64,000 nucleotides of DNA from Rickettsiales bacterium (lineage in GTDB: Bacteria > Pseudomonadota > Alphaproteobacteria > Rickettsiales > UBA3002): the NCBI GenBank assembly GCA_028281385.1, contig JANQJY010000098.1:11180-75179 (forward strand), written 5' to 3'. A model generated the notes under the pieces. That model was not told the origin of the DNA, did not search any database, and saw only the letters and a list, made by a program, of their open reading frames with translations. The first letter of the stretch is position 1. Each line of letters opens with the position of its first letter. Below are positions 8,076 to 27,030 of this stretch, piece by piece. Position numbers and translations under genes: made by a program.

Positions 8076-8531
8076 CTAAAAGCGGAATCCTGTAACAATC
8101 CGCCTTTGCCACATGTCATCCAACCGATGTTCTACCACTTTGCGTGCCGGCGCATAGGCATGGATCAGAGAAAGCGATGTAGGTTCGCCACCCGTAACAG
8201 GTAACGCGTAACTACTGACAATTCCTACATGCCTGGCATTGCCATCAATCCTCATCAGCGCGACATCACCTGGTTGCAATACATCCTTATCAATAAGGTG
8301 AAGTACCCGGCACAAGCCATTCCATAAACGTGCTTCGTCCGGAATATGACCATAATCGGTTTCATCGAAATCTGCCAATCGTTGCCCGGCTTTCTCAAGT
8401 TTTAACTCGCCGGCCACGCAGGCCAACAGACCCAGACAATCCACCCCATGCCGGCTGCGCCCCTGATGTCTGAACGGCACGCCGAGCCATCCGCGTGCAC
8501 AGGCAACAATCTGCTGGCAGCGCTCAGACAT
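8076..8531 (-). CDS. RcGTA g14-like NlpC/P60 cell-wall peptidase
   Basis: CARGWLGVPFRHQGRSRHGVDCLGL (catalytic Cys context), ..HVGIV.. and ..IHAY.. motifs; size and position as in GTA clusters. Confidence 0.85.
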   Translation of the reverse strand: MSERCQQIVACARGWLGVPFRHQGRSRHGVDCLGLLACVAGELKLEKAGQRLADFDETDYGHIPDEARLWNGLCRVLHLIDKDVLQPGDVALMRIDGNARHVGIVSSYALPVTGGEPTSLSLIHAYAPARKVVEHRLDDMWQRRIVTGFRF

Positions 8532-8586: not shown

Positions 8587-9051
8587 CTATGCCTGTTTTT
8601 TTTCTTTCTCAGGGCGATAAGACGCACGTAGCGACGGGCGTGCAAACAACGGGCGTTGGCCCAGGCTTTTCGCATACCACCATACCAGGGCGGACATAGT
8701 GACAATCGCCATACCGAAGACCCAGATAAAGGCGCCGATCGCCGCATCGCCATACAGCCCGATAATGGTAGCAGATGCAAAAATGGCAATGGCAATAATA
8801 AAGCCGAGAATCTGTCCCAGGATCGTACTGAACAAATGTACTTTCAATGACCGATTTTCCCACTGATGGCGTTGCTGTTGCTCTTTGGCAAACATATCCA
8901 GAATCTGCTGAGCGGACCCTTCAACGACATAATCATAGGCCTCCAGCATTTCCGGATCCGGCAATATTTCAATATTTTTACGCGGCGCATTGGGCTTGCG
9001 TTTATTATTTTGCTTGCGCGGAGAATGAGACGATTTGGGCGGCTGATTCAT
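8587..9051 (-). CDS. DUF2335-like membrane protein
   Basis: LPDPEMLEAYD..GSAQQILDMFAKEQQQRHQWE followed by two TM helices matches the DUF2335 pattern. Confidence 0.5.
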   Translation of the reverse strand: MNQPPKSSHSPRKQNNKRKPNAPRKNIEILPDPEMLEAYDYVVEGSAQQILDMFAKEQQQRHQWENRSLKVHLFSTILGQILGFIIAIAIFASATIIGLYGDAAIGAFIWVFGMAIVTMSALVWWYAKSLGQRPLFARPSLRASYRPEKEKKQA

Positions 9052-9409: not shown

Positions 9410-10258
9410 TTAACTGCTTCTGGTTGTTGAAGTTTCAAAGATCTTATCGGTTCCTGGCACATGTGGTTCGCCGCGAAAATTCACGGCATTGTTAAAGCGC
9501 GATATGCAGGTTTCGAATGTCTTGTCACACCCGGCTTCGGCACTATACCCATCCCCCACATTGACATCATACGGCATCGGCAAGACAGTGATAAACTGCC
9601 CGTTTGCGAATTCCTTGATTTCCATCGACAGTCCGGCATTGGCACCGCTGGTAAAGGTCATCAGACCAAAAGCGAAATAGCCATCCTCTTCCGTGCGTGT
9701 GCTATCGGTAAAGATGTTGCGATCGCTCACAGACGTCAATGTACCGATATGGGTAAATCCGGTCATATTCATCTTGCATCGGCTGCCGCCCAACCTGGCT
9801 CTGCAGCCCGGTGCGTACAGTTCCCCGATCGTCTGACTGAGCTGCTGCGTCAATCCGCGCACTTCGGCAACAAACTGCCCGTCCTTGACGGTCACTTCTC
9901 CCAGCCAACCCGTGCGCAGCATCATCCGTCCCTGCGTCAGATCAGCATAATTGACCATAAACACTTCGATTTCAGCAAAATCATATAGTCCGGCGAGCAG
10001 GTCTTCTTCCGTAATGGCTGCGGCATCGAGTAATCCTTCGATATCGAGATTATCGACATTCAATGCTGCCGAACCGACGATAGAGGTCGGCGTAAAACCG
10101 GTGGCAGCCTGATAGGTGACGCTATCAAACAGGATGTCACGGTCATGATCGGTGAATCCGAGTACGGTATTATCGCGCCGCGTCACTTTCCAGCAGGTTG
10201 CAAGCGTCGTTACTTCTTCTGCCAGATGGGCTTTCAATTCACTAGAAATGGATTTCAT
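9410..10258 (-). CDS. RcGTA g13-like hub protein (DUF2163 / BR0599 family)
   Basis: ..TTLATCWKVTRRDNTVLGFTDHDRDILFD..TYQAATGFT..VDNLDIEG..ITEEDLLAGLYD.AEIEVFMVNY is the characteristic N-terminal pattern. Confidence 0.9.
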   Translation of the reverse strand: MKSISSELKAHLAEEVTTLATCWKVTRRDNTVLGFTDHDRDILFDSVTYQAATGFTPTSIVGSAALNVDNLDIEGLLDAAAITEEDLLAGLYDFAEIEVFMVNYADLTQGRMMLRTGWLGEVTVKDGQFVAEVRGLTQQLSQTIGELYAPGCRARLGGSRCKMNMTGFTHIGTLTSVSDRNIFTDSTRTEEDGYFAFGLMTFTSGANAGLSMEIKEFANGQFITVLPMPYDVNVGDGYSAEAGCDKTFETCISRFNNAVNFRGEPHVPGTDKIFETSTTRSS

Positions 10259-10282: not shown

Positions 10283-10888
10283 CTAAATTCTAATCTCTAT
10301 AATCGGGATATCACTCCAGCTTCTAACACCATAATTCTCCAACGTTGCCGAAAGTTGGTCGGTATCGAACCGCACCGGCACATCAAATTTAAAATCAGCG
10401 GTAATCACCGCACTATTCGCCGGCGGTGTAGTGAAACTCACCGCACCGGTAGTGGTATCTATTGTCACGCCGCTGGTTTGTTCAATATCATCAACATAGA
10501 TAGTGACACTTCCACTGACCGGTTTGGTAATGGTTCGCGATTCATTGCCGCTACCGCTGCTGTAATTTTTCACCAGTTGAAAATCGGTGGTGCTGCCATC
10601 GCCCGTGCCGATCGTTTCTCCGGCAGTTTCGAAATCCGTCCAGTCTTTGAAACGAAACCCGTGCGCCCGTCCTTTGCGTGCACGGAAAAACGCAATCAAT
10701 AGATCGAGCTGTGCTTGCATTTTGACTCCATGCGCAACATTATAACGCGCACGTGCCTGCATCCAGTTACTGTTACGTTGTTCATGCCCGCCCTGGGTAA
10801 CAACAATATCGGTCGAATAACCGGGTCCACCAGATGAGCCATAGCTGATATCCGTTGGGAACTGCACCTCGTGAAAGGCCATAATCAA
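10283..10888 (-). CDS. RcGTA g12-like distal tail protein (DUF2460 / TIGR02217 type)
   Basis: MAFHEVQFPTDISYGSSGGPGYSTDIVVTQGGHEQRNSNW..RARYNVAHG..LIAFFRARKGRAHGFRFKDWTDF is the signature of the family; start is 10888 or 10882. Confidence 0.9.
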   Translation of the reverse strand: MIMAFHEVQFPTDISYGSSGGPGYSTDIVVTQGGHEQRNSNWMQARARYNVAHGVKMQAQLDLLIAFFRARKGRAHGFRFKDWTDFETAGETIGTGDGSTTDFQLVKNYSSGSGNESRTITKPVSGSVTIYVDDIEQTSGVTIDTTTGAVSFTTPPANSAVITADFKFDVPVRFDTDQLSATLENYGVRSWSDIPIIEIRI

Positions 10889-10918: not shown

Positions 10919-12250
10919 TTAAGACGTTTTTTGCGCCGCTTGTCTGGCGGCCAGTTCCTGCTGTGCCTTGACCATCTCGACAAAGCTGTCACCCTTGCGC
11001 ATGTTGGCACCACGTTGCACGGCTTCTGTCCATTTACCGACAGGTTTTCGCTCCTGCGCATGAGCGGTCGGCTGCCTGTCCACCGTAACCTTGGCGGAGG
11101 CGGAAGGCCGGAGCGAATGCGAATGACCTTCATCCTCTTCCAGATACCGGTCCACCCGCTCTACTGCATCTGCAATAAAAGACCGTCCTTCGTGATCCTG
11201 TACGCGATTCGCCGTTGTAATCGGTGCCTGCATTGCATGATCCGTCGGGCCAAGCCTGTCGATCAACCGGCCGATCATCAAACGCCCGGCATCCACACCT
11301 TGATTCGCGGCAAACGCATCTTCCGCACAGAGCCGCGTCAACGCGTCATATTTGCGCATCAGCATCAACTGCCCGCGTTCGCTCAGTGCATGAAACGGTT
11401 CGCCATATTGATTTTTAATCGCTTCATACAGATAGGGGTTTTGCGCTATGCGTACTTTGAAAATATCCAGCGCAGTAACCTTTTCACCTTCCATTTGTTT
11501 GGCAATCACATTATCGATATGCATCGCCGGGTTTTGCTGGTCATCGACATCCATAACATTTTTACCGATATAAGTACCAAGTGGATAACCGATACTGAAG
11601 CCAATAAAGCTACCAACCAGTCCACCTATTACCGCTAACGGCCCGAGAGCCGTAATCGCAACCCCAACAGAACCAAGCACAAACGCGCCTATGCCAGCTC
11701 CCACAAGCCCAGCCATATTCAGCCATGGATGTTTCTCTTTGTCTTCTTCCAATGCGTCAAGGGTACGATGCAGACTCTTATTGGTACGTGCCGCATATTC
11801 CATGGCATTTTCATCCACACGATTTGAGTCGATATCCAACTGCTCGGCAATTTCTTCGCGGTATTCATCCAGCACCATCTGGCGCTGTTTGTTATATTTA
11901 TACTGCGCATTAATAAACCCAAACGGTGCGCCGATAACCGCACCTGCAGGCCCAATCGGTAATCCGGTTTCCGCTATTTCCAGCAGGTAATCCGTGGTCA
12001 GGGTATCGCCGATTTTCTGCGGCACTCCTTTCATCTGACCGCCAACGATGGGAATCTCCATATTCCTTACCATCTGCGGCACCGGCACATGATCGCCCCA
12101 AGTATGGACCAAAGATTTCTTTTCCATTTCCCCCTTCGGATCGATTGAAACTCCTGCCGGATGACTTGCCGTCACCTGCGCACGCCTTGCCTGGCCATAA
12201 TCATACTGGAACGGATTAGGCTCAACCATTGGCACTCTCCTCTCCGGCAA
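10919..12250 (-). CDS. hypothetical protein with Gly-zipper TM hairpin (443 aa), in the position where a tape measure gene would be
   Basis: ORF ends 30 nt before g12 and overlaps the upstream ORF by 29 nt; segment GLVGAGIGAFVLGSVGVAITALGPLAVIGGLVGSFIGFSIGYPLG. Confidence 0.6.
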   Translation of the reverse strand: MPERRVPMVEPNPFQYDYGQARRAQVTASHPAGVSIDPKGEMEKKSLVHTWGDHVPVPQMVRNMEIPIVGGQMKGVPQKIGDTLTTDYLLEIAETGLPIGPAGAVIGAPFGFINAQYKYNKQRQMVLDEYREEIAEQLDIDSNRVDENAMEYAARTNKSLHRTLDALEEDKEKHPWLNMAGLVGAGIGAFVLGSVGVAITALGPLAVIGGLVGSFIGFSIGYPLGTYIGKNVMDVDDQQNPAMHIDNVIAKQMEGEKVTALDIFKVRIAQNPYLYEAIKNQYGEPFHALSERGQLMLMRKYDALTRLCAEDAFAANQGVDAGRLMIGRLIDRLGPTDHAMQAPITTANRVQDHEGRSFIADAVERVDRYLEEDEGHSHSLRPSASAKVTVDRQPTAHAQERKPVGKWTEAVQRGANMRKGDSFVEMVKAQQELAARQAAQKTS

Positions 12251-14072
12251 TGCTCATTTGCGGCGCTACGGCCACGGCCCCTTCATGCACAGCTGAATCG
12301 GTCATCAGGGTAGTCGGTGGAATATTCAGTTTCGCCGCACGTTCACGCAGGCTCTGGCGTCTTTCTTCCGCTTTGACCGGCGCCTCTTTTCGTTCTTTCA
12401 CCTTCTGTTCCAGCTCCTTGGCTTTGTCTTCCCTGAAGGCTTTGGCATTGGCTTCCGCCTGTTCTTTCTGTTTCATACCAAGCTCTTCGGCGATACGCTC
12501 TGTCCGCTCATTAAACTTCTCTTCACCGTCAATCTCAGCCAGCAATTCGGCAACGGGTATCTGTTCTTCCGCATATTCCTTTGCCAGCTGTTGCAAAAGC
12601 GGGTTCTCGATTCCACCAGTCGCTCCTGCTGCTTTGGGAGATGCCGCCATGATGATTTGTGCATAATAGTCCAGCGGCACGAAGGTTCCGTCTTTTTGCG
12701 CATCCTTAACCTGCACATAGCTGTTGAGGAAATTACCTTCACTTCCCAGCTTACTGCTTTCCCAATGTGCCATTTGCATCATGATGGCACCGCCCATCAA
12801 CAGCGGATTATGATGGCGCATGGTAAATAAAATATTCAGTGCCGAGTTACCTGCCGCTCCTATGGCTTCCGGTCCCAGATTCGCCCACATATTGCTGCGT
12901 GCCTGTTCGACCATTTTCGGCAGTTTGCCAAACAGGATCGTATAGGTAGACGCGTCTTTGCCGGTCAAGTCCTTATGCAATTCTTTCAGATAGGAAATCG
13001 ATTCAGTGAACCGCAGCGTCGTACGTCCGGTCTGATACGCAGCACCTGCTAACATACCACCTTTAAACCCGGCGTCAAAGACAGTCGTATTGGCTGCTGC
13101 TGATTTCAGCGCACTCATCATCGTACGTCTTCCGGCAGCCGCGTCCATACGCCCGGCGAGACCATGCGTACCTTCTTCGACATGCCGGAAATGCTCCGCC
13201 AACTTCGCCGCATGTGATGTTACCTCGGCACCCTTAGGCAGAACCTTAAGCGCCGCCTGTGCATCTGCCAAATGTGCTTTTGCTGTGGTCATGTCTGCAA
13301 CACCGTGCGTACTACCCAACGCCGCTCTAAATTTCCCGAGATGTCCTTCAATCTCGTGCATATACGCTGGCGTCTTAACAACCTCTGTACCAGCCTTTCC
13401 GAACAATCTTCCCGCGCGTCGTGTAATCTTGTTTAGGAAACCATTATGTGGGTCCTTCACATTCTGCATCAATGTATCCACATCGCTCAGTAGATTTTTG
13501 TGATGTTTTGCTAATCCCGATCTCTGCCATCTTTGCCACAGGGGGGAGGCTTCTCCAGTATGCAGCGTTTTCTCCGCAACGGCCTTTTCCACCGGACGTA
13601 TGTTGTCAGCAACATTATACAACGAACTGGATCCCAGATGCTTCGTATTCACATCCGCTACCGCACCGACCAGATTCGCCGGCAATGCACCTACCTGCCC
13701 AAGTTTTGTCGCCTTCATGGCTTCCGTCGGTGCACGCAGCAGGCTATCGGTTCCAACCCGGAAATATTTCCCGACCCATGGCAATTTACCAACCGTTGCC
13801 CCTAACAATCCGGCCAGCAATGGTCCGAAGAACTCAAGATTGAAGAACCCCCACCCGATGCTATCCCCTTCATTCAATACTTGGAATTCGACATCATCAT
13901 AAAGATGATGGCGTTCTTTGAGAGGCGGTACATTATTCTGTAGTTCATTCGGCAGATGTGCCGCTGTTTTTCCGGTAGAATGTGTGGTGGTGCGCGCAAC
14001 ATTCCCTACCCCGGCCAACTGGCTGGTGACGTTGCTGGCGGCTTGCGCTGTCTGAACGGGGGTACTCACCAC
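12222..14072 (-). CDS. hypothetical large helical protein (616 aa)
   Basis: GTG start with AGGAAAAG RBS; box promoter at 14110..14153; Lys/Glu-rich coiled C-terminus. Confidence 0.6.
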   Translation of the reverse strand: MVSTPVQTAQAASNVTSQLAGVGNVARTTTHSTGKTAAHLPNELQNNVPPLKERHHLYDDVEFQVLNEGDSIGWGFFNLEFFGPLLAGLLGATVGKLPWVGKYFRVGTDSLLRAPTEAMKATKLGQVGALPANLVGAVADVNTKHLGSSSLYNVADNIRPVEKAVAEKTLHTGEASPLWQRWQRSGLAKHHKNLLSDVDTLMQNVKDPHNGFLNKITRRAGRLFGKAGTEVVKTPAYMHEIEGHLGKFRAALGSTHGVADMTTAKAHLADAQAALKVLPKGAEVTSHAAKLAEHFRHVEEGTHGLAGRMDAAAGRRTMMSALKSAAANTTVFDAGFKGGMLAGAAYQTGRTTLRFTESISYLKELHKDLTGKDASTYTILFGKLPKMVEQARSNMWANLGPEAIGAAGNSALNILFTMRHHNPLLMGGAIMMQMAHWESSKLGSEGNFLNSYVQVKDAQKDGTFVPLDYYAQIIMAASPKAAGATGGIENPLLQQLAKEYAEEQIPVAELLAEIDGEEKFNERTERIAEELGMKQKEQAEANAKAFREDKAKELEQKVKERKEAPVKAEERRQSLRERAAKLNIPPTTLMTDSAVHEGAVAVAPQMSIAGEESANG

Positions 14073-14109
14073 ACACTTTTCCTATCTAAAAACTTTTCCA
14101 CTATTTCTC

Positions 14110-14153
14110 AGTATAATGGTAAATGGCGTGTGATTTTATGAAGCTTTTGTGAA
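14110..14153 (-). promoter_or_regulatory. box promoter b (ttcacaaaagcttcataa, 20-nt spacer, tatact)
   Basis: Box at 14136..14153, -10 at 14110..14115; upstream of 12222..14072, 10919..12250, g12 and g13. Confidence 0.55.
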
Positions 14154-14160
14154 GACTGGA

Positions 14161-14224
14161 GGGATTGGGCATTAGGGATTAGAAAATCTAATGCTCAATG
14201 CCTACTCCCTAATGCCTAGCTCTA
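14161..14224. repeat. heptad-type palindromic element (ggcattaggga / tccctaatgcc)
   Basis: 11-bp perfect inverted repeat at 14168..14178 and 14206..14216; supplies the stop of 14202..16466. Confidence 0.65.
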
Positions 14225-16466
14225 AAATATCCGAAACTGTACCATAATGCAACACATGATCCACGGTGGCATTGGTTATCTGGCGTTCAATGCCTTCCGG
14301 CTGCGTTGGTTTGCTTTTCATTTCTTTCACTCCGTCTATGCCTTGTTCTTTGATTTTCTGAGCGGCGTCTGACAATTTTTCTATTTCCGCTTTCGTCATG
14401 CCCATCTGCTTCAGTCGGTCGTCACCAAGACTGACAAGCCCCATGATAGCATCCAGTAAATACTGTTCATATTGCGCTTTGGTTTTCTCGCGAATCGCCG
14501 TAATTTCCTTTTTCTTCAGACCTGCCGATTCCAGAATACTGTTCGGAAAAAATGATGCGTATACCGCTTTTTCCTCTCCTTCCATTGCATTCAGAGCATC
14601 ACGCAACTGATCCTTGCTGAAGGCGGCATCACCGAAATAACGCGACTCATCGACATGTATCTTTTCTTTTACTTTTTCTGCCAGACGTGCAAGCTGACGT
14701 CTAACCACTTCCTCGCTGGCAATCGATTTTCCATCCATCCTGATGATATGACGGGTCCCTACCAAATGAATCAGTTGCAATGTACCTATCTCCCCATCGC
14801 GTAGTGCTTTGGCAATCAACTCAGACACTTTATAAAGTTTTTCATGCAACCGTTTGCCGATCTTATTATTGGGGTTGCAGTCTTGTTCATGCTGCTGGAA
14901 TATCTGTGCAATATAGGTTTCAAGTGTCACTTCATTTTTATTGTCTTTGCGGTCGACATTCATCTGTGGCGGTAGTTTGTAGCGTTCCAGTGATGGATCA
15001 TCTTCTATTTGTCCTTTCAGATACAAAATCATATCCAGCGCAGTGACGGGCTGTGTCACTTTTGTGCGGTTACTATTGAACTGATTGGCAAACATACTCA
15101 CGACAAAAGACGCAGCTGGTACAGCAAAATTCATCTTATTTTCCGATGGCAGATACTCCGGCACATCGGATGTTTGCTTCCCGACTTCTTCTGCCAGTCC
15201 GGTGAGTTCTTTTTGCGCCTGCTCGTAGGATTTTTCTCTGCTTAAGAAGCCTTCCGCCTTGCTGTGCAATTCTTTTGCCCGCGCGAGGATTTTCTCCTGC
15301 TGCATTTTAATCGCATCCATGCTGTTGCCTGTTTTGGCCGTAATCTCTTCGAGTTTTTCACGCTGGAATGCATCAGCGCCAAGCGCGCCTGCGCGATGGT
15401 TCATTCTAAGTGCGTTATAGACAAATATCGGCAGTCTCTGGAATAGATTGATGAAATTATGACCACGTTGCGTGTTCAGATCATAATGGATTTTGCGCCG
15501 CGCATTATAAATCACTTCATTATCATCTTTGCGTACACGCATCAGCGACAGATAGCCATGCTGTTTTTCGCCTTTAATATCATCGAGAATCGGCGAAACA
15601 TTCTTTGCCAGCCTTTGCATATTCTGCTGATATCTTTTTTCTGTTTGCCACATCGCATTGATATCGACCCAGTTGGTCACTCCGAACAAGGCCGTATACG
15701 CCGTTGCCAGTGCGGTTATGTGACGGTGGGTGGCGTGCATACCGGTGGTTTTGAGCACCTCCTCAGTCATACCATAGGTTTTCTTGCCTATCCAGTTACC
15801 GACGCCCAGCGCTGCCAGGCTATACATCATCGACAGGCCCGCCGCATATTCACGCTTTATACCGACCAATCCGAAAAGCGAGACTTCCTTGCTTTCTTCA
15901 TCGACGACCATGCCCGGCAGTTCTTTGAGTTTATCATCGGTCATATGTTCGCCGAAACTCTGTGCCTGACTGCCAAACTGCTGGAACAGATTTTTCATCG
16001 TATCGTTTACCGGAAGCGTGTCCGCCGCACTGCCCGCCAACTTCGCCATGGCCGCACCGGCGGCATTCATATCGCCGCCCTGGAAAGCACCCTGTAGTTG
16101 CTGCGCCTGCGCCATGGCCTGCTGTCCTTGTGCCATCATATTCGCGGCATCGCCCATACCGTTCGCTTTCATCTGTGCCTGGGTAAATGCCGCCATCTGC
16201 TCCGGCGAGGCATTATGCATGCTGTTCATCATCGCGTTGATCTTCTCAGGCGATTGCGCAAGCGTATCCGCCACCGTACCGACACTTTCGGCATTCACCA
16301 CGCTTGACACAGTATCTTTCGTATCCCTGGCGGCGGCTTCCAGTGACTCACTCATTTCCTTCACGGCTTCATCATCTGTTTCTTTTTTTGCCATAGTCTC
16401 TTTCTTTTTCGCCTTCACTTTGCTCCTGTGCCTGAGCGGTCGCGTTTGCGACATGACATCCGACAA
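14202..16466 (-). CDS. hypothetical large protein (754 aa; alternative start at 16394)
   Basis: Long ORF; the first 24 codons are encoded by a family-A repeat, so ATG 16394 (MAKKETDD..) may be the real start; box promoter at 16519..16562. Confidence 0.6.
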   Translation of the reverse strand: MSDVMSQTRPLRHRSKVKAKKKETMAKKETDDEAVKEMSESLEAAARDTKDTVSSVVNAESVGTVADTLAQSPEKINAMMNSMHNASPEQMAAFTQAQMKANGMGDAANMMAQGQQAMAQAQQLQGAFQGGDMNAAGAAMAKLAGSAADTLPVNDTMKNLFQQFGSQAQSFGEHMTDDKLKELPGMVVDEESKEVSLFGLVGIKREYAAGLSMMYSLAALGVGNWIGKKTYGMTEEVLKTTGMHATHRHITALATAYTALFGVTNWVDINAMWQTEKRYQQNMQRLAKNVSPILDDIKGEKQHGYLSLMRVRKDDNEVIYNARRKIHYDLNTQRGHNFINLFQRLPIFVYNALRMNHRAGALGADAFQREKLEEITAKTGNSMDAIKMQQEKILARAKELHSKAEGFLSREKSYEQAQKELTGLAEEVGKQTSDVPEYLPSENKMNFAVPAASFVVSMFANQFNSNRTKVTQPVTALDMILYLKGQIEDDPSLERYKLPPQMNVDRKDNKNEVTLETYIAQIFQQHEQDCNPNNKIGKRLHEKLYKVSELIAKALRDGEIGTLQLIHLVGTRHIIRMDGKSIASEEVVRRQLARLAEKVKEKIHVDESRYFGDAAFSKDQLRDALNAMEGEEKAVYASFFPNSILESAGLKKKEITAIREKTKAQYEQYLLDAIMGLVSLGDDRLKQMGMTKAEIEKLSDAAQKIKEQGIDGVKEMKSKPTQPEGIERQITNATVDHVLHYGTVSDILELGIRE

Positions 16467-16497
16467 TGGATCAAGTGGCAGAGCGAAAAGCGATAAA
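16434..16497 (+). repeat. family-A element (long-loop variant)
   Basis: gagcggtcgcgtttgcg..atccgacaatggat..aagtggcagagcgaaaagcg. Confidence 0.75.
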
Positions 16498-16518
16498 TAT
16501 TACTCCAGTTCACCTTAT

Positions 16519-16562
16519 ACTATAGCAATCAAACGATTAGACGCGTGTGACAATTGTGTGAA
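16519..16562 (-). promoter_or_regulatory. box promoter n (ttcacacaattgtcacac, 20-nt spacer, tatagt)
   Basis: Box at 16545..16562, -10 at 16519..16524; drives 14202..16466 through a family-A element. Confidence 0.6.
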
Positions 16563-16610
16563 ATGCTGCAGGGGTGAAATGGTGATGCCGTCACAACCAT
16601 TGCATGACTT

Positions 16611-16654
16611 TTCATGAAACTGTCACACTGTAGATCACCTCACAGCGGTATACT
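16611..16654 (+). promoter_or_regulatory. box promoter c (ttcatgaaactgtcacac, 20-nt spacer, tatact)
   Basis: Box at 16611..16628, -10 at 16649..16654; upstream of 16708..17373. Confidence 0.65.
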
Positions 16655-16707
16655 TAACATTGGCAAACTTTGTGTGAGGATAAGCGAAAAACGAATAACC
16701 GTATATT

Positions 16708-17373
16708 GTGGAAGATCAGAATACAGCAAGCCATGCAGACCGTGTAACGCATAATCTGCATCGTTCCCGGGCACGTGAATATCTCACATCGCAAATCGCA
16801 GCAGCAGCTGTGGCGATGGGTGCCGTGTGGCTTGGCCGTAACATAGCGCCCAAGGCCATGCAAAAAGCCGATAAAGCTATTGCCGACTATCTGGCACCTC
16901 ACATGCACGGAGAATCTGCTGCCTACATACAGAATTATGCGCGCCGCACTTTGAATTACACGACCATGCTAACCGGCGGTCTTATGACTACTGTTACCGG
17001 ACAAACGATTCAGGCCCGTCGTCGGCGTAGCGGCAAGGAACATGCCGATGACATCACCATATCACGCGATATTACACGCGTATTAACCGGTTGGAGCATC
17101 GGTGCATTTGGCGCCGTCGCGGCGCTGAATATTGCCGAACGTTATGGCCGCAAAGGCAGTGCCAAGGCCGTTACCGACATCCTTGACCGTGCGGAAAAAA
17201 TGCTCGATACACATCTCCTGCATGGTGCGGAATATGTGAAAGGCAATAAAATCTCCGAAGGGCTGGTTGCCAATGCCGTGATGGTTGCCGGCGCTACACC
17301 TGTCAGCATCGCAGCACAACAATTATATGATTCGCTCCGCTCCCATCCGGCCTATGAAAAGATTGAGCGGTAA
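16708..17373 (+). CDS. hypothetical membrane protein (221 aa)
   Basis: GTG-start ORF with several hydrophobic segments; box promoter at 16611..16654. Confidence 0.5.
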   Translation: MEDQNTASHADRVTHNLHRSRAREYLTSQIAAAAVAMGAVWLGRNIAPKAMQKADKAIADYLAPHMHGESAAYIQNYARRTLNYTTMLTGGLMTTVTGQTIQARRRRSGKEHADDITISRDITRVLTGWSIGAFGAVAALNIAERYGRKGSAKAVTDILDRAEKMLDTHLLHGAEYVKGNKISEGLVANAVMVAGATPVSIAAQQLYDSLRSHPAYEKIER

Positions 17374-17386
17374 TGTTTTTGTGTTT

Positions 17387-17446
17387 GAGCGGTCGCGTTT
17401 GCGGAATGCCGACTAGGCGTTACGCAAGTGGCGGAGCGAAAACGAA
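17387..17446 (+). repeat. family-A element (long-loop variant)
   Basis: gagcggtcgcgtttgcgg aatgccgactaggcgtt acgcaagtggcggagcgaaaacg. Confidence 0.8.
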
Positions 17447-17456
17447 TCATATGTTT

Positions 17457-17517
17457 GAGCGGTCGCATTTGTGAAATAACGACCAGCTATTGAGCAAGTG
17501 GCGGAGTGAAAACGAAT
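17457..17517 (+). repeat. family-A element (long-loop variant)
   Basis: gagcggtcgcatttgtga aataacgaccagctatt gagcaagtggcggagtgaaaacg. Confidence 0.8.
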
Positions 17518-17533
17518 GAATTGTAACAAAACC

Positions 17534-17578
17534 TTCACACAACTGGCAGCCATAAATAGCTAAAATGCTAGGTATATA
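17534..17578 (+). promoter_or_regulatory. box promoter d (ttcacacaactggcagcc, 21-nt spacer, tatata)
   Basis: Box at 17534..17551; upstream of 17688..18857, with a family-A element in the leader. Confidence 0.5.
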
Positions 17579-17609
17579 AATAAAAGTAGAAATAGTTAAA
17601 ACCGCGCTG

Positions 17610-17673
17610 GAGCGGTCGCGTTTACAAAACATCGACCAGATGTCGAGCAAATGGCGGAGCAACAGCGAAAAAA
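17610..17673 (+). repeat. family-A element (long-loop variant) in a 5' leader
   Basis: gagcggtcgcgtttacaaa acatcgaccagatgt cgagcaaatggcggagcaacagcg. Confidence 0.8.
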
Positions 17674-17687
17674 GTGAGTGGTGTGTT

Positions 17688-18857
17688 ATGGCCATACTTG
17701 ACAGAGCGCAAGAACAAATTGGTGCGGTAGCAAAAAAGGCAGAGAATGCTATCTATGATGGTTTATTCGGAGGCATTTTTAACAAACTGGGTATCGACCT
17801 GGATGCTGAATCTAAAAAATGGACCCAGATTTTCGATATTTTTGGCAAGCGGATAAGCGGTGATACCTCCAAAAGTACAGGCTGGACATGGATGGACAAA
17901 ATCACTGACTTTTTCAAAGGGATCAGCGACTGGATCGGTAAACAGATTTACAACCTCATCGGCAACGAACAGTTCGAAGAGGCCAATCAACTAGGATTTT
18001 CCAGAGTGGATGATCTGCTGAAAAAACCAGCAGCACAGCAGGAAATTGTTAAGGTAACCGGACAAAATAAAGAATTACACTCTGCCGTTACAGAGGCGAC
18101 GCACAAAGCCATCGCTCAAAGCCGAAAAGATCTCACCCATACCATGAGATCACTGGAGAATGTCGGGGCACATGTCAAAGATACAAGCTTTGCCAAAGTA
18201 AAAGAAGCGGTAATGAAACATTATTATAAGGAAGCCACCGGAGGGGAATACCGAGGCGATAATATAGAGGAACATATGCCGCCGGAAATTAAAACTCTGG
18301 CACACAATATTGCGACCTACACCTCTGAAGCCGTAGGTGATGCGTTTCTTACCGCACGCAAAAAAGAAAACCCCGTTAAGCTCGCCGTCATGGATGATCC
18401 AAACCTCACTGCCATGTTTCAAACGGCTAATGCATCGCTTACAAAGCTGCAAGGTACTTTACAGAAATATAACGTTGCCCAGGCTACCATAGATCAGTTT
18501 GGAGCATTAACAGATGAAACACAAGGCTTCACCAAAGCGCAGATGGAAAAGATGCGGAAAATGATCATCGAGGGCAACGTAACACAAGAGGCTATTCTTT
18601 TTCTTAGATCATCGAAAGGGCGAGACAAGCTGATTTCGGAATTTAAAGGCCCAAAAGAAACGGCGTTTGATGCAAAGTTTGAACAGGCAACAAGCATACG
18701 CACTGCCACAATAGGAGGCAACACAACAATGCTGGTGTTATCCGACGGAGACAAAGTGATTGATACCAGCATCAGCATACTAGGAGAGCTGACTGCTACA
18801 GCTGCACTACCGACCGACACAACACATGACGAAACAGCCCACAGAACACCATCATAA
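17688..18857 (+). CDS. hypothetical protein (about 390 aa)
   Basis: ATG 17688 (MAILDRAQEQ..) chosen because upstream codons are repeat-derived; box promoter at 17534..17578. Confidence 0.55.
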   Translation: MAILDRAQEQIGAVAKKAENAIYDGLFGGIFNKLGIDLDAESKKWTQIFDIFGKRISGDTSKSTGWTWMDKITDFFKGISDWIGKQIYNLIGNEQFEEANQLGFSRVDDLLKKPAAQQEIVKVTGQNKELHSAVTEATHKAIAQSRKDLTHTMRSLENVGAHVKDTSFAKVKEAVMKHYYKEATGGEYRGDNIEEHMPPEIKTLAHNIATYTSEAVGDAFLTARKKENPVKLAVMDDPNLTAMFQTANASLTKLQGTLQKYNVAQATIDQFGALTDETQGFTKAQMEKMRKMIIEGNVTQEAILFLRSSKGRDKLISEFKGPKETAFDAKFEQATSIRTATIGGNTTMLVLSDGDKVIDTSISILGELTATAALPTDTTHDETAHRTPS

Positions 18858-18889
18858 CAACCAGACACGGAGGTATCGCATAGCACCCC

Positions 18890-20533
18890 ATGGCCGATGA
18901 TGAAAACAAGATCAAACTTCCACCGAAAGAGGTACAGGCACTGCTACGTCCTATCATGCTTGAGCCGGCAAGTACGGTTGGACAGGGCATCATAGACGCT
19001 ATCAAGCACCGGCAGGCGGTTAGGACACTTGAATCCGAAAAAGACCGCATCGCTCCTGAAAAACGTGATGAATATATGGCAGGATTTCGCCGTCGCGAAA
19101 AAGAAGCCGTCACTGCCCTTGCCGAAGCGATTCTGCTCAATGATAAAAATATACAGCAACAATTAAGCGATGCAGGCATTACTCCGACGGATATTTATCA
19201 TTACCCAAAACTCGAACAAGACTCAGCGAGATATCAGGAAATTCTGGATGATGTCTGGGAAAAAGCGGAAAGAATATACGAGCTTACCGGACGGGGTGAC
19301 AATGTCGAACAGATTTATACCAGCATCAAAGCTGCAATTGATACCGCACAACCAAACACAACATTTGATGGTCTGAGTCCTCTTGATGAATGGGATGAAG
19401 AATTCAAAAAACAGGAAGACAAGCGTGCCGAATTTTTACGGCATATGATCTGGCAGAATCGGGCGCTGTATACCATCGGCCAGACACTGGAAATGCTCGC
19501 TCCACAATCAGAGCCGGAACCGATCGACAAATCTTCCGATCAGATCATCAGTGAAATTACCGGCATCCCGCTTGATGAAGCCGGTAAATTACTGGCTGAA
19601 CCGACGAAGGAAAATATCGAGAAATACGCCAAAGACGGTTCGGCCTATCAATTTTTAGACACGCAGGAGAAAGCAGGAAACATCTCTTTCCCGAGCGAAG
19701 AAGCAAAGCTGGCCTATGCTTCTGCCCTTGGCCGTATCGTCGAGGTTAAAGTCCGTGAAGTTGCAGGTGGCCGGTCGATTCGCGGTGCTGCCGGCTATCT
19801 CTTGATGGGAGGCGGACAGGCCTTCGGTCATCTCAAAGGGCTGTTGGGTGATGCCATCACCGGCGAGGAAAATGCCCTCACACTGGATCAACGCACTAAA
19901 CAGGGCATGGACACATTGACCAGGCAAGTCATGATCAATGTCGAAAAAGAGGTGTGGTGGTCCTTTACTTATGGTCCGAACGACCCAAGCCTGCCGGATG
20001 ATTTGCGGCAGGATTTACGCGCCATCAGCAAAATCTATGGCAGAGGTGTACGTGAAGAATTCCAGAGCCTGGCCTCTGCCTATACCGGCGTGCGAACCGG
20101 GCATATCAAAATGAACGACATGGTCGCTCCGGATAGACAAACCCATGAGGCAGGCATTACACTGCACGCCACATGGGGTGGCCGCATCCACAAGGATGTA
20201 GACTGGATCGCCGATAAAACAGGAGAATTACCACCTGCTGGTGAAAAATGGTGGCAAACTGCCAGCCGCAAATCCGCCATTCGAAAAGCGTCATTGCCGG
20301 GTGGCGTGGATACGTCTATGCGTTTTCGCAATGGTCATAATGCAGCGACTGCTGCAAAACTCCGTCAAGAAAGATATGATGACGTATTCGCACGCTCACT
20401 TGCCCAGCAACATATCGGGAAAGGCCATTATTACTCTGAAGATCCAGATTTTACAGGCACGGTCGACGACATTACCGCACAATTACAAAACGGAGTGTCC
20501 AAACCGGAACTGATTGCTCGTTACATAGGCTAA
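18890..20533 (+). CDS. hypothetical protein (547 aa)
   Basis: Long ORF 32 nt after the previous gene, probably in the same operon. Confidence 0.6.
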   Translation: MADDENKIKLPPKEVQALLRPIMLEPASTVGQGIIDAIKHRQAVRTLESEKDRIAPEKRDEYMAGFRRREKEAVTALAEAILLNDKNIQQQLSDAGITPTDIYHYPKLEQDSARYQEILDDVWEKAERIYELTGRGDNVEQIYTSIKAAIDTAQPNTTFDGLSPLDEWDEEFKKQEDKRAEFLRHMIWQNRALYTIGQTLEMLAPQSEPEPIDKSSDQIISEITGIPLDEAGKLLAEPTKENIEKYAKDGSAYQFLDTQEKAGNISFPSEEAKLAYASALGRIVEVKVREVAGGRSIRGAAGYLLMGGGQAFGHLKGLLGDAITGEENALTLDQRTKQGMDTLTRQVMINVEKEVWWSFTYGPNDPSLPDDLRQDLRAISKIYGRGVREEFQSLASAYTGVRTGHIKMNDMVAPDRQTHEAGITLHATWGGRIHKDVDWIADKTGELPPAGEKWWQTASRKSAIRKASLPGGVDTSMRFRNGHNAATAAKLRQERYDDVFARSLAQQHIGKGHYYSEDPDFTGTVDDITAQLQNGVSKPELIARYIG

Positions 20534-20693
20534 TTCCACCACAATTTCCGCTCCTTTTCTGAAAAAATCGGTAATCTCCCCCACAGATGGTGCAATTTTC
20601 TTTGCAGATGGGGTGTCCTGTCGCCTATAGTAATGGGTGTAAACTATCCTATATTATACGTATATACATAATGTGTGGGGAGTCCGAATCACC

Positions 20694-21146
20694 ATGGGTG
20701 GCAAGATAAAATTTCATCTGATTGCAATTTCCAGTATCGTGCTGGTGATCATGGGAGTGTATTTCCTACAGCAATCGATGAATGCGCCGGAAGAAGTACC
20801 CGATGGCACGCCTGCTGAGGAGCGGCTTATTATCATTGCCCATGCGAACTGGGGGCTTAACTGCAACCGCTATATCGAATATCGCAACAAGCAGAATGCC
20901 CGGAAAGAGGAATTTAAACCCCGTGCACTGATCCAGGAAAACAACATGCTCTCGAAGGTTGCTCAATTCTGCAATGGTAAGAAGGTCTGTGAATTCGTTG
21001 CCGATGACAAAACCTTTGGGACAGAGCGTGTGCAATCCTGTGCCAAGCGGTTTCAGGTGGTGTATCGCTGTTTCGAATATGACCGTCCGTGGGAGATAAA
21101 TGCCAACCCGCGCGAAAAAATTACCATCAACTGTAAAGACAAATAA
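20694..21146 (+). CDS. membrane-anchored protein with SUEL/rhamnose-binding-lectin-like Cys pattern
   Basis: N-terminal TM; ..IIAHANWG..CNGKKVCEFVADDKTFGTERVQSCAKRFQVVYRC resembles the Gal_Lectin consensus (A.YG .. CnGk..C..FG.DPC...K.L.V.Y.C). Confidence 0.45.
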   Translation: MGGKIKFHLIAISSIVLVIMGVYFLQQSMNAPEEVPDGTPAEERLIIIAHANWGLNCNRYIEYRNKQNARKEEFKPRALIQENNMLSKVAQFCNGKKVCEFVADDKTFGTERVQSCAKRFQVVYRCFEYDRPWEINANPREKITINCKDK

Positions 21147-21151
21147 ATGAC

Positions 21152-21964
21152 ATGGAATTTATCGCGCCGTTCCCCTCGCTTTATCTTGCTAAATGGGGGT
21201 TTCTGGCACTGCTATTTGTCGGGATGCTGGTCTATGGCTGGTGGTATAAGCGCTGGCTGCATCGTATTGCGCTAACACACTCCTATGTCGAGCAGAGCCG
21301 ACTGCTGCATCAACAGCTACGCATCCGCCATATGCAATGGGTTGGCACATTGTTTCTAGCATTATCGCTTACCATCTGGGTGGATTATCACCACATGTCG
21401 CTGCCGGAAAGCAAAGAGCGTCATCCTGAGTCCACCGCTGCAACTATAGCAGAAACGGCTGTCAAAGAACCTGTTACCACTGATAGGAATGATGTAACCA
21501 CTTCGGCTTCTCAGAATGGCACTATCCCAAACGTTGAGCTCCAAACACCGGACTCCGAACTCACACCTCCCAGGCTGGACGATCTCAGCGATGATGACAT
21601 CCTCAGCCTGTTTCAACCAACATCCTTGTCGCTGGAAGCATCCGATGGGCTCGACCAGTTAAAAAGCGATGTCGAACAGCTGCTGGTCGCCACCTATATC
21701 TTACGCCATTGCCACATGATCAGCGTCGGCGAGGACACAACGATACATCAGCGGCTATATGCCTATCTCACGTCGCAAAAGCAGGCGATTGAGGCTTTTG
21801 GCACGAATGTGGACGTGTTGGCCGATAATATTGCCGTCGCGGCGCTGGGTACATTTCAGCTGCGTTACCAGGGCCGCCCGTGTGATACACAGCAATTGCC
21901 CTCTCTGACGAGGCAGATGGAAAACTGGCTGAAAAAAACGGAAATTATCGTAAAAAATCCCTGA
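21152..21964 (+). CDS. hypothetical membrane-anchored protein (270 aa)
   Basis: Two N-terminal hydrophobic helices; starts 5 nt after the previous stop. Confidence 0.5.
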   Translation: MEFIAPFPSLYLAKWGFLALLFVGMLVYGWWYKRWLHRIALTHSYVEQSRLLHQQLRIRHMQWVGTLFLALSLTIWVDYHHMSLPESKERHPESTAATIAETAVKEPVTTDRNDVTTSASQNGTIPNVELQTPDSELTPPRLDDLSDDDILSLFQPTSLSLEASDGLDQLKSDVEQLLVATYILRHCHMISVGEDTTIHQRLYAYLTSQKQAIEAFGTNVDVLADNIAVAALGTFQLRYQGRPCDTQQLPSLTRQMENWLKKTEIIVKNP

Positions 21965-22006
21965 ACCGGCGATTTTACACATTTTTTCGTCAAATTCTTC
22001 CGAAAA

Positions 22007-22021
22007 TTAACTGCTTTTTAA
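22007..22021. promoter_or_regulatory. TTAA-N7-TTAA (CtrA-type box candidate)
   Basis: ttaactgctttttaa; about 100 nt upstream of 22122. Confidence 0.3.
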
Positions 22022-22121
22022 GCCGATCTTTGCAATTTGTTAACCTTTTTACGCTATGCTTAAAAATAGAGCACGGATTAACTGTGCCGGTTGAATTATT
22101 AGTAAAAGGCAGGCAAGACAC

Positions 22122-22616
22122 ATGCGCACATTGATGCCCTCATTGCTGTTCGGTTCGCTGACGTTTATGGCCATTATCTGGATAAACGCGAATCACCCCG
22201 AGATGATCGACGGTGTCATGTCATCTCTGCGCAATGAGGCTATTTCCTCACAGTTGCCATCCAACAAGGAAGAGCGGGCCCGCATGGATCGTATCAATGG
22301 TCTGCTGATTTCCGAACGTAACAAAGAAGACTTACGTAACGGCCGTCCATTCTGGGATGCTGCGCCACATATGGTGGAACTGGCGTTCGGCGTCTATGCT
22401 GACGATTCGGTTGTTCGGGTAAAAAACAACACATCATATGAGTTCCAGACCTATAGTTTCGGTGCCGGGGCAGATCCGATAGTAGCGGAATTTCAGAACA
22501 GCAAGCTCGCCTGCATGCATTATCCCAACCAGCAGCAGTCCTTATGCAATGATTCACGTGTCAGCTACTACAAATCGATTCGCGATTTGAGAAAAGGTTA
22601 TCCGTTTAATTTGTAA
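22122..22616 (+). CDS. hypothetical exported protein (164 aa)
   Basis: N-terminal hydrophobic signal or anchor; TTAA-N7-TTAA box about 100 nt upstream. Confidence 0.5.
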   Translation: MRTLMPSLLFGSLTFMAIIWINANHPEMIDGVMSSLRNEAISSQLPSNKEERARMDRINGLLISERNKEDLRNGRPFWDAAPHMVELAFGVYADDSVVRVKNNTSYEFQTYSFGAGADPIVAEFQNSKLACMHYPNQQQSLCNDSRVSYYKSIRDLRKGYPFNL

Positions 22617-22656: not shown

Positions 22657-23058
22657 TCAGTCATGTGCGAGCATGATCAGCGTAAGCGTTCCATGATAGG
22701 TCCGCCCGTCGCGCAGCAATTCAATGTCACTGCCGAGCGCATTCATCACAATGAGCGACTGACCCGCCAGACTCAATGATCCATCATCGAGCACGTCATA
22801 GATACGTTCCATGATATCGAGCGTTTCCTTACGTCCGCCAGTCCGGCTGTAGACATGGACTATGCCGGTGATTTCCGCCCCGTTCGTCGTGGCGGTCGAC
22901 CAGTCACGCTGTGTTGCATCGCCAATGACGACATAGGGATAGGCGGTGTTATCCGCCACGCGGTCATAAACACCGCTGATCATTCCCATCAACGCCGCAT
23001 CTGCTATCAGCGCATCATACATACCCTGTTGAATGTGGTTCAAACTGAATCCGCTCAT
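22657..23058 (-). CDS. RcGTA g8-like DUF3168 tail-completion protein
   Basis: ..MYDALIADAALMGMISGVYDRV..AYPYVVIGD..VHVYSR.GGRKE..IMERIYDVLDD pattern; 4-nt overlap with g7. Confidence 0.8.
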   Translation of the reverse strand: MSGFSLNHIQQGMYDALIADAALMGMISGVYDRVADNTAYPYVVIGDATQRDWSTATTNGAEITGIVHVYSRTGGRKETLDIMERIYDVLDDGSLSLAGQSLIVMNALGSDIELLRDGRTYHGTLTLIMLAHD

Positions 23059-23423
23059 GTGGCTACTCCTTCTTCGGCGAGAATTTCGAGAATAATACCC
23101 TGTTCTTCAACATTGCGTACGGCGCGGATATTGAATACCCGACCGGCATAGCTGATACGGTGTTTTGCTGTCACATCATTGCGATAACGCATGACAATAC
23201 GATGGGTAATGCGTTCGCTCAGCTGGAACTCATTCAGCCGTTCCACAGCCCCCGTGCGCAGCGGTAATAGTTCCGCCCATACCGTCGCAACATTGACCCA
23301 GCTTACCGTACTGCCGCCCATACCGTCCGCTGCTTCGCTTTCGGCCTGAATGGTAATACGCTGGCGCAAGCGTGACGCCAGCTCACGCGCATCACCCCAG
23401 CTTAATTTGCGGCGGAGACTCAT
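23055..23423 (-). CDS. RcGTA g7-like head-tail joining (head closure) protein
   Basis: LRQRITIQ..GG..W..VWAE..P..G.E..H.I.MRYR..VT..HRI.Y.GR.FNI..V.N pattern of the SPP1 gp16 / HK97 gp7-like family. Confidence 0.85.
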   Translation of the reverse strand: MSLRRKLSWGDARELASRLRQRITIQAESEAADGMGGSTVSWVNVATVWAELLPLRTGAVERLNEFQLSERITHRIVMRYRNDVTAKHRISYAGRVFNIRAVRNVEEQGIILEILAEEGVAT

Positions 23424-23956
23424 AACCGCACCTCTTTGCCAAAGTCATAGGCCGTATCGACAAATTCCGGTGGCAAGCTGGTCATGCGGTGTTCATACAG
23501 ATGGGCAATATGACGCAGGATACCCTGGCGAATGCCGGCAGGCACATCGCTCGCATTATTGCCATAGCCGGTGACATAGACAATCTCCACCTGATGTCCG
23601 ATCGACACTTCGTCAAATACCAGCGTGTCTTTCGCCGCATTCAGACCATATAAACTCGTATCAATGATGGTTTCGCTGTCGTCTTCTGCGATCAACTTCA
23701 CACTGGTAACCGACTGCACCGGTCCCATCGGCAATCGCGTACAGGCAGGTGCCGTCTCATCAAATGCCAGTTTCCAGCTCTGGGTGATCAGTGATTTCGC
23801 CAGATACTCCTCGGCGAATTCACGTGCTGCCACGATCATATCGGTGATCAGACTGTCATCGTCACTGCCGTCCACGCGCAGATAGTCTTTTGCCTCTGTC
23901 AGGCTGACCGATTCTGTCACCGGATCGGCGGTGCGTTCCAATAAATAATGGGTCAT
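23420..23956 (-). CDS. RcGTA g6-like head-tail connector (gp6-like adaptor)
   Basis: SLTEAKDYLRVDGSDDDSLITDMIVAAREFAEEYL; AAGGAG RBS before ATG 23956; the longer ORF to 23998 runs into a hairpin repeat. Confidence 0.85.
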   Translation of the reverse strand: MTHYLLERTADPVTESVSLTEAKDYLRVDGSDDDSLITDMIVAAREFAEEYLAKSLITQSWKLAFDETAPACTRLPMGPVQSVTSVKLIAEDDSETIIDTSLYGLNAAKDTLVFDEVSIGHQVEIVYVTGYGNNASDVPAGIRQGILRHIAHLYEHRMTSLPPEFVDTAYDFGKEVRL

Positions 23957-23993
23957 GGGGGTCTCCTTTTTGTTTTTCGGTGTTTTTTTATTC

Positions 23994-24016
23994 GTCATCC
24001 CGGCGAAAGCCGGGAT
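23994..24016 (+). repeat. GTCATCCCG-type REP-like hairpin
   Basis: gtcatcccggc-gaaa-gccgggat. Confidence 0.55.
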
Positions 24017-26941: not shown

Positions 26942-27030
26942 ATGCCTGTCATGACAAGCATATATGAAAAGAGCAACAAAAAACCAGGGACGCATTGCGT
27001 GATGCAACACGCCCCTGTAGGCAATGGAAG

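Follow-up and report, generated by a model that had tools for sequence, protein, structure and literature searches.

The 64,000-nucleotide stretch of contig JANQJY010000098.1 from a Rickettsiales bacterium (the window) carries on its minus strand a structural cluster that resembles RcGTA, the Rhodobacter capsulatus gene transfer agent (GTA), and the interval between g8 and g12 of this cluster is occupied by a block of other genes. Comparison with related loci indicates that three minus-strand genes of the block, called here C, B and A in the order of transcription, belong to a conserved module that replaces g10-g11, and that the loss of g9 is secondary and lineage-variable. That a GTA head and baseplate can be kept while tail genes go undetected is already known; what is new is the presence of three unnamed families as a conserved module. 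We tentatively propose that C, B and A encode membrane-active proteins, specific to the lineage, that belong to the inner tail or are ejected and that are produced along with the baseplate. The genes on which the argument turns are the following.

22657..23058, minus strand: g8, tail terminator/completion protein (Pfam Tail_completion_gp17, E=8.6e-25)
14202..16466, minus strand: C, 754 amino acids (aa), founder of family C, with syntenic homologues in relatives
12222..14072, minus strand: B, 616 aa, founder of family B, with profile matches
10919..12250, minus strand: A, 443 aa as the longest open reading frame (ORF), probably 436 aa from the ATG at 12229, with homologues directly 3' of B
10283..10888, minus strand: g12, distal tail protein (Pfam DUF2460, E=1.7e-78)
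9410..10258, minus strand: g13, baseplate hub (Pfam Phage_phiJL001_Gp84_N, E=2.6e-62, and Phage_BR0599)

The final recognisable head-proximal GTA gene ahead of the block is g8. Exactly nine long ORFs lie between g8 and g12 (10919-22616), three on the minus strand (754, 616 and 443 aa) and six on the plus strand, just as an earlier note on this DNA had described; its further statement that no tube or chaperone homologue is recognisable in the window was borne out by profile searches and domain scans. A g9 (tube) hidden Markov model (HMM) from six relatives gave a best E=1 against the six-frame translation of the window, and the g10 (chaperone) queries gave nothing significant against the same translation (best E 0.18). 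Phage_tail_2, Phage_TAC_11 and tape-measure protein (TMP) domains were not found in the scanned non-overlapping window ORFs of at least 60 aa, and homologues of g9, g10 and g11 were found nowhere in the 64-kb window. The plus-strand gene next to g8, p164, is convergent with it, and the two stop codons are 40 nt apart; there is, therefore, no room for g9 and no g9 remnant. None of the nine block ORFs scored above the curated cut-off in Pfam or NCBIfam, and none had a significant PHROGs match.

Related loci were fetched through g12 from 185,579 species genomes (L002, the metagenome-assembled genome [MAG] UBA6178; L003, a Rickettsiales MAG; and L004, a MAG labelled Azospirillaceae), and further loci came from an NCBI assembly (L022), Logan/ENA (L023, L029, L030, L033 and L034), a JGI metagenome (L025) and IMG/VR contigs (L027 and L028). 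UBA6178 has been placed in the basal Rickettsiales family Candidatus Mitibacteraceae (bioRxiv 10.1101/2021.08.31.458344). The order C-B-A-g12 is kept in at least 11 related loci, including the Ca. Mitibacteraceae MAG and other Rickettsiales MAGs, and both the window and those relatives whose loci span this stretch show the order g8-(g9)-...-C-B-A-g12. Syntenic homologues of C are found in L002, L003, L004, L022, L023, L025, L027, L028, L029 and L030. Homologues of A stand directly downstream of B in L002, L003, L004, L022, L023, L027, L029 and L030, and L034 has one as well (BLASTP, E=9e-10). A two-sequence profile of family B retrieved 145 representatives at E<=1e-3, 96 of them at E<=1e-10 (HMMER, 1.84 billion cluster representatives, those of 50%-identity clusters). 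No meaningful Pfam domain was seen in any of the 86 family B members scanned, and the few that are named are called 'hypothetical protein [Rickettsiales bacterium]'. Altogether, 11 of the 12 distinct contexts in which families A, B and C occur are GTA clusters.

A, B and C constitute three distinct families with no significant similarity to one another; in hhalign the three were paired with each other at probabilities below 1%, apart from A and B at 14.7%, and a relationship between these two was not accepted. The possibility that A is a true ORFan arose from a word-indexed search of 5.8 billion proteins, in which it found only itself, and was overturned by the tblastn homologues in the syntenic loci; low-complexity Gly/Ala words probably saturate the candidate list of that search. 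Profile searches with A3 and with concatenated B+A added only 1-3 extra proteins, and tblastn against 50,697 phage genomes detected no isolated phage that encodes B or C. As six of the nine genes (A, B, C, p157, p270 and p164) have homologues in relatives, the earlier description of the block as ORFans does not hold for them. As judged from these sequence comparisons, the block does not consist of recent unrelated insertions, and the six genes belong to a module conserved across a clade of GTA clusters. The earlier note had offered tape-measure analogues, ejected or cargo proteins and unrelated insertions as possible identities for A and B. Either of the first two may hold, and unrelated insertion of A, B and C is disfavoured because of the conserved linkage to g12.

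The A, B and C of the window share 25-39% identity with the L002 and L004 proteins; with those of L003 the figure drops to 23-25% or less. Between loci, identity of the three proteins is only 23-39%, against 59-69% for g12 and g13 in the same comparisons, and all of the ORFs are intact. Such a fast-evolving yet maintained pattern is typical of tape-measure and host-contact proteins. A, B and C appear, therefore, to be lineage-specific, fast-evolving and selectively maintained families of basal Rickettsiales-type GTA clusters (Ca. Mitibacteraceae relatives).

The layout of the clade, read in the GTA orientation, is g6, g7, g8 and [g9], followed by the opposite-strand genes p164, p270 and p157 with variable large genes, and then by C, (an extra protein), B, A, g12, g13, a DUF2335 gene, g14 ... 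g15. Five module-bearing relatives (L004, L022, L025, L027 and L034) have g9, with its Phage_tail_2 domain, immediately after g8. It follows that the module fills the g10-g11 slot and that the loss of g9 was a separate event. The earlier note had proposed that the whole tube, chaperone and tape-measure slot is replaced by the block; this describes the slot in the window, but replacement of the tube does not agree with the five relatives that carry the module and keep g9. L005-L012, whose relationship through g12 is more distant, are phage-like and encode a tube of the Phage_tube_2 type together with a lambda-type TMP of ~840 aa directly upstream of g12, and in L013 g9 is followed by a 261-aa protein in the position upstream of g12. 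Between g13 and g14 of the window lies the gene for a DUF2335 membrane protein (8587..9051, minus strand; Pfam DUF2335, E=4.4e-12), a two-helix protein whose gene occupies the same place in L002, L003, L004, L013, L022, L029, L033 and L034. This gene is a conserved marker of the clade, and its product may be another clade-specific particle or release component. L013 is more distant; it has the DUF2335 gene and still has g9 and the short g11-position protein.

The junctions between C, B, A and g12 bear on how these genes might be expressed. The earlier note gave the overlap of the 616-aa and 443-aa ORFs as 29 nt, which holds for the longest ORF of A alone; the likely start of A, the ATG at 12229, is preceded by GGAGAGGAGAG, a strong Shine-Dalgarno sequence, and yields an 8-nt ATGGTTGA overlap and a 436-aa product identical to the public gene call. 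The stop codon of B and the start of A overlap or abut in 7 of 10 loci, which suggests that A is translationally coupled to B. The gap between A and g12 is 30-36 nt: the previously noted 30 nt is correct for the longest g12 ORF, whereas g12 probably starts at the ATG at 10882, so that the gap from A is 36 nt. No terminator-like site was found in this gap, and no promoter-like box was found upstream of g12 or g13. Co-transcription of C-B-A-g12-g13 is plausible because there is neither a terminator-like site between A and g12 nor a promoter-like box before g12, and because the B-A-g12 adjacency is conserved. The proposal in the earlier note that A and B are co-transcribed with g12-g13 is supported by the same observations, which are indirect.

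The candidate control element is repeated in the window. It consists of a 17-nt box, CTTCAYNRAACTGTCACA, then 21 nt, and then TATACT or TATAGT. An 18-nt pattern of the element has 11 matches in the window, compared with 0.46 expected by chance. The copies are as follows.

16520..16660, no strand assigned: divergent control region with two promoter-like copies, read from the sequence
16563-16520, minus strand: the copy facing C (17-nt box, 21 nt, TATAGT)
16610-16660, plus strand: the copy facing p221 (17-nt box, 21 nt, TATACT)
14109..14153, minus strand: 'box b', a degenerate promoter-like copy with 4 mismatches, in the 129-nt C-B spacer upstream of B
16546-16563(-), 16610-16627(+), 26024, 35457, 40995(-), 43332, 46819, 47770, 62011, 33644(-) and 2354(-): matches to the 18-nt pattern

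The layout of box b (17-nt box, 21 nt, TATACT) is shared by the copies at 16611 and 62012, and another promoter-like box is located upstream of p405, at 17530. Box b had been considered the sole recognisable promoter for these genes, a view that the same-architecture copy upstream of C no longer allows. Most copies of the element lie ~80-100 nt upstream of inserted non-GTA genes.

The three proteins differ in character. A combines a helical stretch and a Gly-zipper hydrophobic hairpin with a conserved GLPxxGP motif, and its helical C-terminal domain is accompanied by a short C-terminal helix that is also conserved. The hydrophobic Gly-zipper segment lies at residues 175-225; the hairpin is conserved in the family and is expanded to ~50 residues in the window. 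The only hydrophobic helix of B is N-terminal, and its C-terminal tail is charged; C lacks any strongly hydrophobic segment, and none of the three has an N-terminal signal peptide. The AlphaFold2 (AF2) model of B (106 sequences) is all-helical with long helices, at a predicted local distance difference test (pLDDT) score of 76.5 and a predicted template-modelling (pTM) score of 0.56. The AF2 model of C, obtained from a 3-sequence alignment, is also all-helical, with a mean pLDDT of 60 and a C-terminal domain (~470-740) at pLDDT 80-90, and C is predicted to be a soluble, all-helical protein. Helices in the two models reach 65 residues. The composition of A and B resembles that of related TMPs (Ala 13-15%, Gly about 10%). 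Of the Gly-zipper hydrophobic hairpins that the earlier note had ascribed to A and B, that of A was confirmed.

One interpretation of these observations, which we favour tentatively, is that A, B and C act as inner-tail or ejected particle proteins. Transcription would begin at the promoter-like element upstream of C, and possibly also at box b, to give one message with g12-g13, from which B and A would be translated in a coupled fashion. A, as a membrane-inserting Gly-zipper protein, would be the functional stand-in for a tape-measure or needle protein, and B and C, ejected along with it, would be helical partners that help to span or pierce the envelope of the recipient. The position of the three genes, between the tube/tail assembly chaperone (TAC) site and the distal tail gene, is that of a tape-measure gene. 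Module-bearing relatives with g9 would build a tube and would, therefore, need an interior or ruler protein, and no other tape-measure candidate is present in the 10-kb flanks of the relatives that keep the tube.

In the genome of the window, g9 would have been deleted from its ancestral place beside g8. The large terminase gene g2 is also split in the window, into an N-terminal ORF (42409-43302, minus strand) and a Terminase_6C ORF (41024-41569, minus strand) that are ~840 bp apart, with an opposite-strand 239-aa ORF (41655-42374, plus strand) between them; the two parts are adjacent in the relative L028. Because g9 is absent and the terminase is split, the window's own GTA system may be defective, and its particle would lack a tube, be completed by genes located elsewhere in the genome, or have lost its function.

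Several results weigh against the interpretation in which the three proteins lie in the inner tail or are ejected. Searches of Pfam, PHROGs and NCBIfam gave no match to TMP, TAC, needle or internal virion families for any of them, and sequence profiles of the PDB gave nothing significant. Comparison by hhalign with 10 lambda-type TMPs and with the g11-position proteins of L013 and L017 gave probabilities below 1% (0.1-0.9%). Foldseek found no PDB match for C at E<1 and, for B, none in the PDB or BFVD at E<0.07 (best E=0.078, TM about 0.1). The similarity to tape-measure or ejection families that the earlier note had proposed was, thus, not seen by sequence or by profile, nor by fold in the case of B and C. 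The gene content is also unfavourable in places: a TAC is absent from the window; five loci (the window, L003, L028, L030 and L033) lack g9 at its syntenic position, where L003 has instead a g10-type chaperone (Phage_TAC_11, E=4e-8); L031 encodes a weakly B-like protein outside any GTA context; in L027 the orientation of C is opposite to that of B-A; and in L029 A and g12 have an opposite-strand gene between them. A final difficulty is size. In RcGTA, one protein of about 216 aa forms a trimer inside five tube rings and the distal tail ring (PMC7296036), and three to five proteins totalling 1800 aa or more cannot all fit the lumen of an RcGTA-like tail, which leaves room for a non-virion accessory role and for radical rebuilds of the particle.

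Among the weak structural matches, the names 'tail tape measure', 'minor tail' and 'internal virion' in BFVD were set aside as a generic effect of long helices and were not taken as evidence; the best match of B to an 'internal virion protein' in BFVD had E=0.39 and TM about 0.1. ClyA-type toxins likewise gave nothing of note: YaxA, XaxA and PaxB appeared for C at E=5-8 with TM 0.06-0.16 in Foldseek, and were absent among the best 50 Foldseek matches for B.

The accessory role is the most serious competitor of the inner-tail interpretation, although we regard it as doubtful. According to this hypothesis, C, B and A are moron-like genes whose products are not in the particle but are either producer-envelope proteins (for release, immunity or regulation) or secreted effectors, the true tape measure being lost or encoded elsewhere. 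The cluster is indeed full of inserted non-GTA genes (RTX, pentapeptide, HigB-like and DUF2335 genes, and a Colicin_D gene in L022), no resemblance to virion proteins was seen for A, B or C, and their combined size exceeds what a short GTA tail lumen could hold; the B-like gene of L031 and the capacity of C to be inverted point in the same direction. Unlike the other inserts, however, which vary by locus, the C-B-A order next to g12 is kept down to a g12 identity of 62%. C-B-A stays with g12-g15 in L002, where no head gene was detected within 10 kb upstream, and in L033 (4493-15466), a rearranged relative, the genes are interleaved with g12 and g13. The order in L033 reads 311-aa ORF (possibly A-like), g12, 667-aa ORF (possibly C-like), 351 aa, B, 1158-aa ORF, g13. 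The absence of N-terminal signal peptides from A, B and C and the lack of any other tape-measure candidate in the flanks of tube-keeping relatives also argue against accessory proteins.

Alternatively, the cluster of the window might be a decaying relic and the block without current function in its host. This would account for the absence of g9, for the terminase split by about 840 bp with an opposite-strand ORF, and for the repeat elements in A, C and the portal gene, and missing tail genes with relaxed tail-gene selection have been reported for Rickettsiales GTAs (PMC9254644). We think that a relic is unlikely, given that all other GTA genes and the nine block genes are intact long ORFs, that the repeat insertion in A is in-frame, and that A, B and C are maintained across the clade. 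Even the terminase halves are each an intact ORF, the C-terminal one with its own ATG.

Another scenario is that B+A (about 900-1050 aa), with or without C, represents an extremely diverged split TMP, homologous to the ~840-aa lambda-type TMP. In L005-L012 the TMP upstream of g12 has 840 aa, which is similar to the combined length of B+A; B and A show signs of translational coupling, and the Ala and Gly contents are TMP-like. An insignificant hhalign match pairs the Gly-zipper of A with a Gly-rich C-terminal TMP segment, and the last ~25 residues of the A family share a [GD]SF-x(5-7)-Q helix that, by eye, is like the 'DSFRASQ.QI' C-terminus of the TMPs of L005-L012; the comparison of the A family with TMP C-terminal tails was not significant (hhalign, 3 aligned columns). 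Every profile comparison was insignificant, with the probabilities of 0.1-0.9% given above. An 11-residue aromatic periodicity gave no signal in A, B and C or in the bona fide TMP controls, and is uninformative for this reason. We know of no split TMP, and consider this scenario quite improbable.

A further explanation, for which we see little chance, is a rebuilt particle in which the short ruler gives way to a set of large helical proteins (A, B, C and in some cases others) that insert into membranes and are delivered into the target envelope. The g9-less lineages (here also without an intact terminase) would then possess, in place of a DNA-transfer agent, a device without a tube that delivers proteins or forms pores; such a particle, if it exists, would be an analogue, derived from a siphovirus, of extracellular contractile injection systems or of the ejection systems of podoviruses.

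The six plus-strand genes of the block fall into a conserved and a variable group.

22122..22616, plus strand: p164, small, with an N-terminal hydrophobic signal or anchor (residues 3-23)
21152..21964, plus strand: p270, membrane-anchored, with a hydrophobic segment at residues 8-30
20673..21146, plus strand: p157, anchored or secreted, with a SUEL-type lectin-like domain
18890-20533, plus strand: p547
17640-18857, plus strand: p405
16708-17373, plus strand: p221

The products of p157, p270 and p164 have N-terminal hydrophobic anchors, and the three genes form a conserved opposite-strand trio that is transcribed toward g8/g9 in the relatives covering the region. Homologues of p164 occupy the same position in L004 (38% identity, E=3e-35), L025 (51%) and L027, and p270 and p157 both have homologues in L003, L004, L022, L025, L027 and L028. 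The match of p157 to Pfam SUEL_Lectin (E=4.5e-6), although below the gathering score, was the best among the nine block ORFs, and the L030 counterpart of p157 has a precomputed PF02140 match. Lysis, immunity and surface binding are possible roles of the trio. The other three genes, p221, p405 and p547, have no family matches in Pfam, PHROGs or NCBIfam and no detectable relatives. They showed no significant similarity, by phmmer or profile, to their positional equivalents in L004, L022, L025, L027 and L028, and profiles of the equivalents of p405 and p547 did not detect the window genes. Relatives have unrelated large genes at the p221-p547 position in the same orientation, and by this comparison p221, p405 and p547 are hypervariable genes.

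In the remainder of the RcGTA-like cluster, homologues of g3-g8 (portal, protease, capsid, adaptor, stopper and terminator) are all present in order and are collinear on the minus strand of the window (Pfam, E 1e-10 to 1e-83), and g12-g15 lie on the same strand. The genes that have not been listed above were assigned by Pfam, and non-GTA genes are given with them.

33654-34955, minus strand: g3, portal
29942-30565, minus strand: g4, protease
27177-28442, minus strand: g5, capsid
23420-23998, minus strand: g6
23055-23423, minus strand: g7
8076-8531, minus strand: g14, peptidase (NlpC/P60)
2947-6630, minus strand: g15, megatron (GTA_TIM, Phage-tail_3 and Rcc01698_C)
26663-27010, minus strand: HigB-like toxin, inserted non-GTA gene
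28574-29938, plus strand: RTX repeat protein, inserted non-GTA gene
30773-33052, plus strand: pentapeptide-repeat protein, inserted non-GTA gene
36693-39686, plus strand: 997-aa proline-rich repeat protein, inserted non-GTA gene
48452-49651, minus strand: RTX/SASA esterase
60673-61914, minus strand: Hint-domain protein
62093-63892, plus strand: RTX metalloprotease

Inserted non-GTA genes, mostly on the plus strand, separate nearly every pair of GTA genes. In the relatives the inserts at comparable places are others; L022, for example, has Colicin_D after g4. There are almost no housekeeping genes in the window.

A dispersed repeat with a ~45-nt period (about TGCCGGAGCGGTCGGCTGAGGCCGGAGCGACGGCGGA) occurs in at least 14 places of the window. 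One copy, of repeat families D4 and D11, lies within the A coding sequence (11052..11128, no strand assigned) and coincides with an in-frame insertion that is specific to the window in the A-family alignment. Other sites are at 30637, 34751-34877, 35104-35232, 38369-38497, 39050-39228, 43782-43944, 52663-52808, 55929-56125, 16424-16498 and 17377-17677. Coding sequences that contain copies are those of the portal (N-terminus), A (C-terminal part), C (5' end) and the 997-aa ORF. In its behaviour the repeat resembles the Rickettsia palindromic elements.

How the C-B-A module relates to known systems depends on which of its features is compared. Like the TMPs of siphophages (the lambda gpH type, TMP_2/Tape_meas_lam_C, which is found upstream of g12 in L005-L012), it is positioned directly upstream of the distal tail gene, and its products are helical, Ala/Gly-rich proteins with hydrophobic Gly-rich segments that evolve faster than the neighbouring tail genes; it differs in the absence of sequence or profile similarity, in consisting of several genes, and in having no frameshifted TAC upstream. 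The ejection proteins of podoviruses (P22 gp7/gp20/gp16 and T7 gp14/gp15/gp16) are encoded by three consecutive genes beside tail genes, and are helix-rich, partly membrane-active and a few hundred residues long. C-B-A is also a three-gene, helix-rich and, as we propose, partly membrane-active set beside tail genes, but there is no homology, and the particle that would host it derives from a siphovirus-type tail.

With RcGTA (Rhodobacter capsulatus g1-g15), the window shares homologous g3-g8 and g12-g15 in the same order, and the module occupies the slot of g10-g10.1-g11 (TAC/TMP), in the orientation of g12 and directly upstream of it. In contrast to RcGTA, however, the window lacks g9, g10 and g11, has three unrelated helical proteins of 436-754 aa where RcGTA has one TMP of ~216 aa, and contains a divergent six-gene operon, a DUF2335 gene between g13 and g14, and many foreign genes. 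The nearest parallel is with the reduced GTAs of Rickettsiales and Holosporaceae (PMC9254644; Orientia, PMC10732058), in which the head, portal and baseplate are kept, the tube and tape measure are undetected, and non-GTA genes lie between GTA genes. Whether Rickettsiales and symbiont GTAs reported to be without tail-interior genes are decaying, are too diverged, or have been rebuilt with recruited proteins has been an open question (PMC9254644), and George et al. (2022, PMC9254644) considered, as one possible explanation, the recruitment of unrelated proteins for the missing tail functions. No description of the A/B/C module or of its families was found in the literature searched. The locus and its relatives supply concrete candidates for such recruitment, namely three unnamed families whose ORFs are maintained despite rapid divergence, whose order is conserved, and which are coupled to the genes for the distal tail and the hub, and the patchy occurrence of g9 offers a natural comparison of tubed and possibly tube-less versions. 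Unlike in the reduced clusters described so far, the gap here is filled by a specific, conserved three-family module, which coexists with g9 in half of the relatives.

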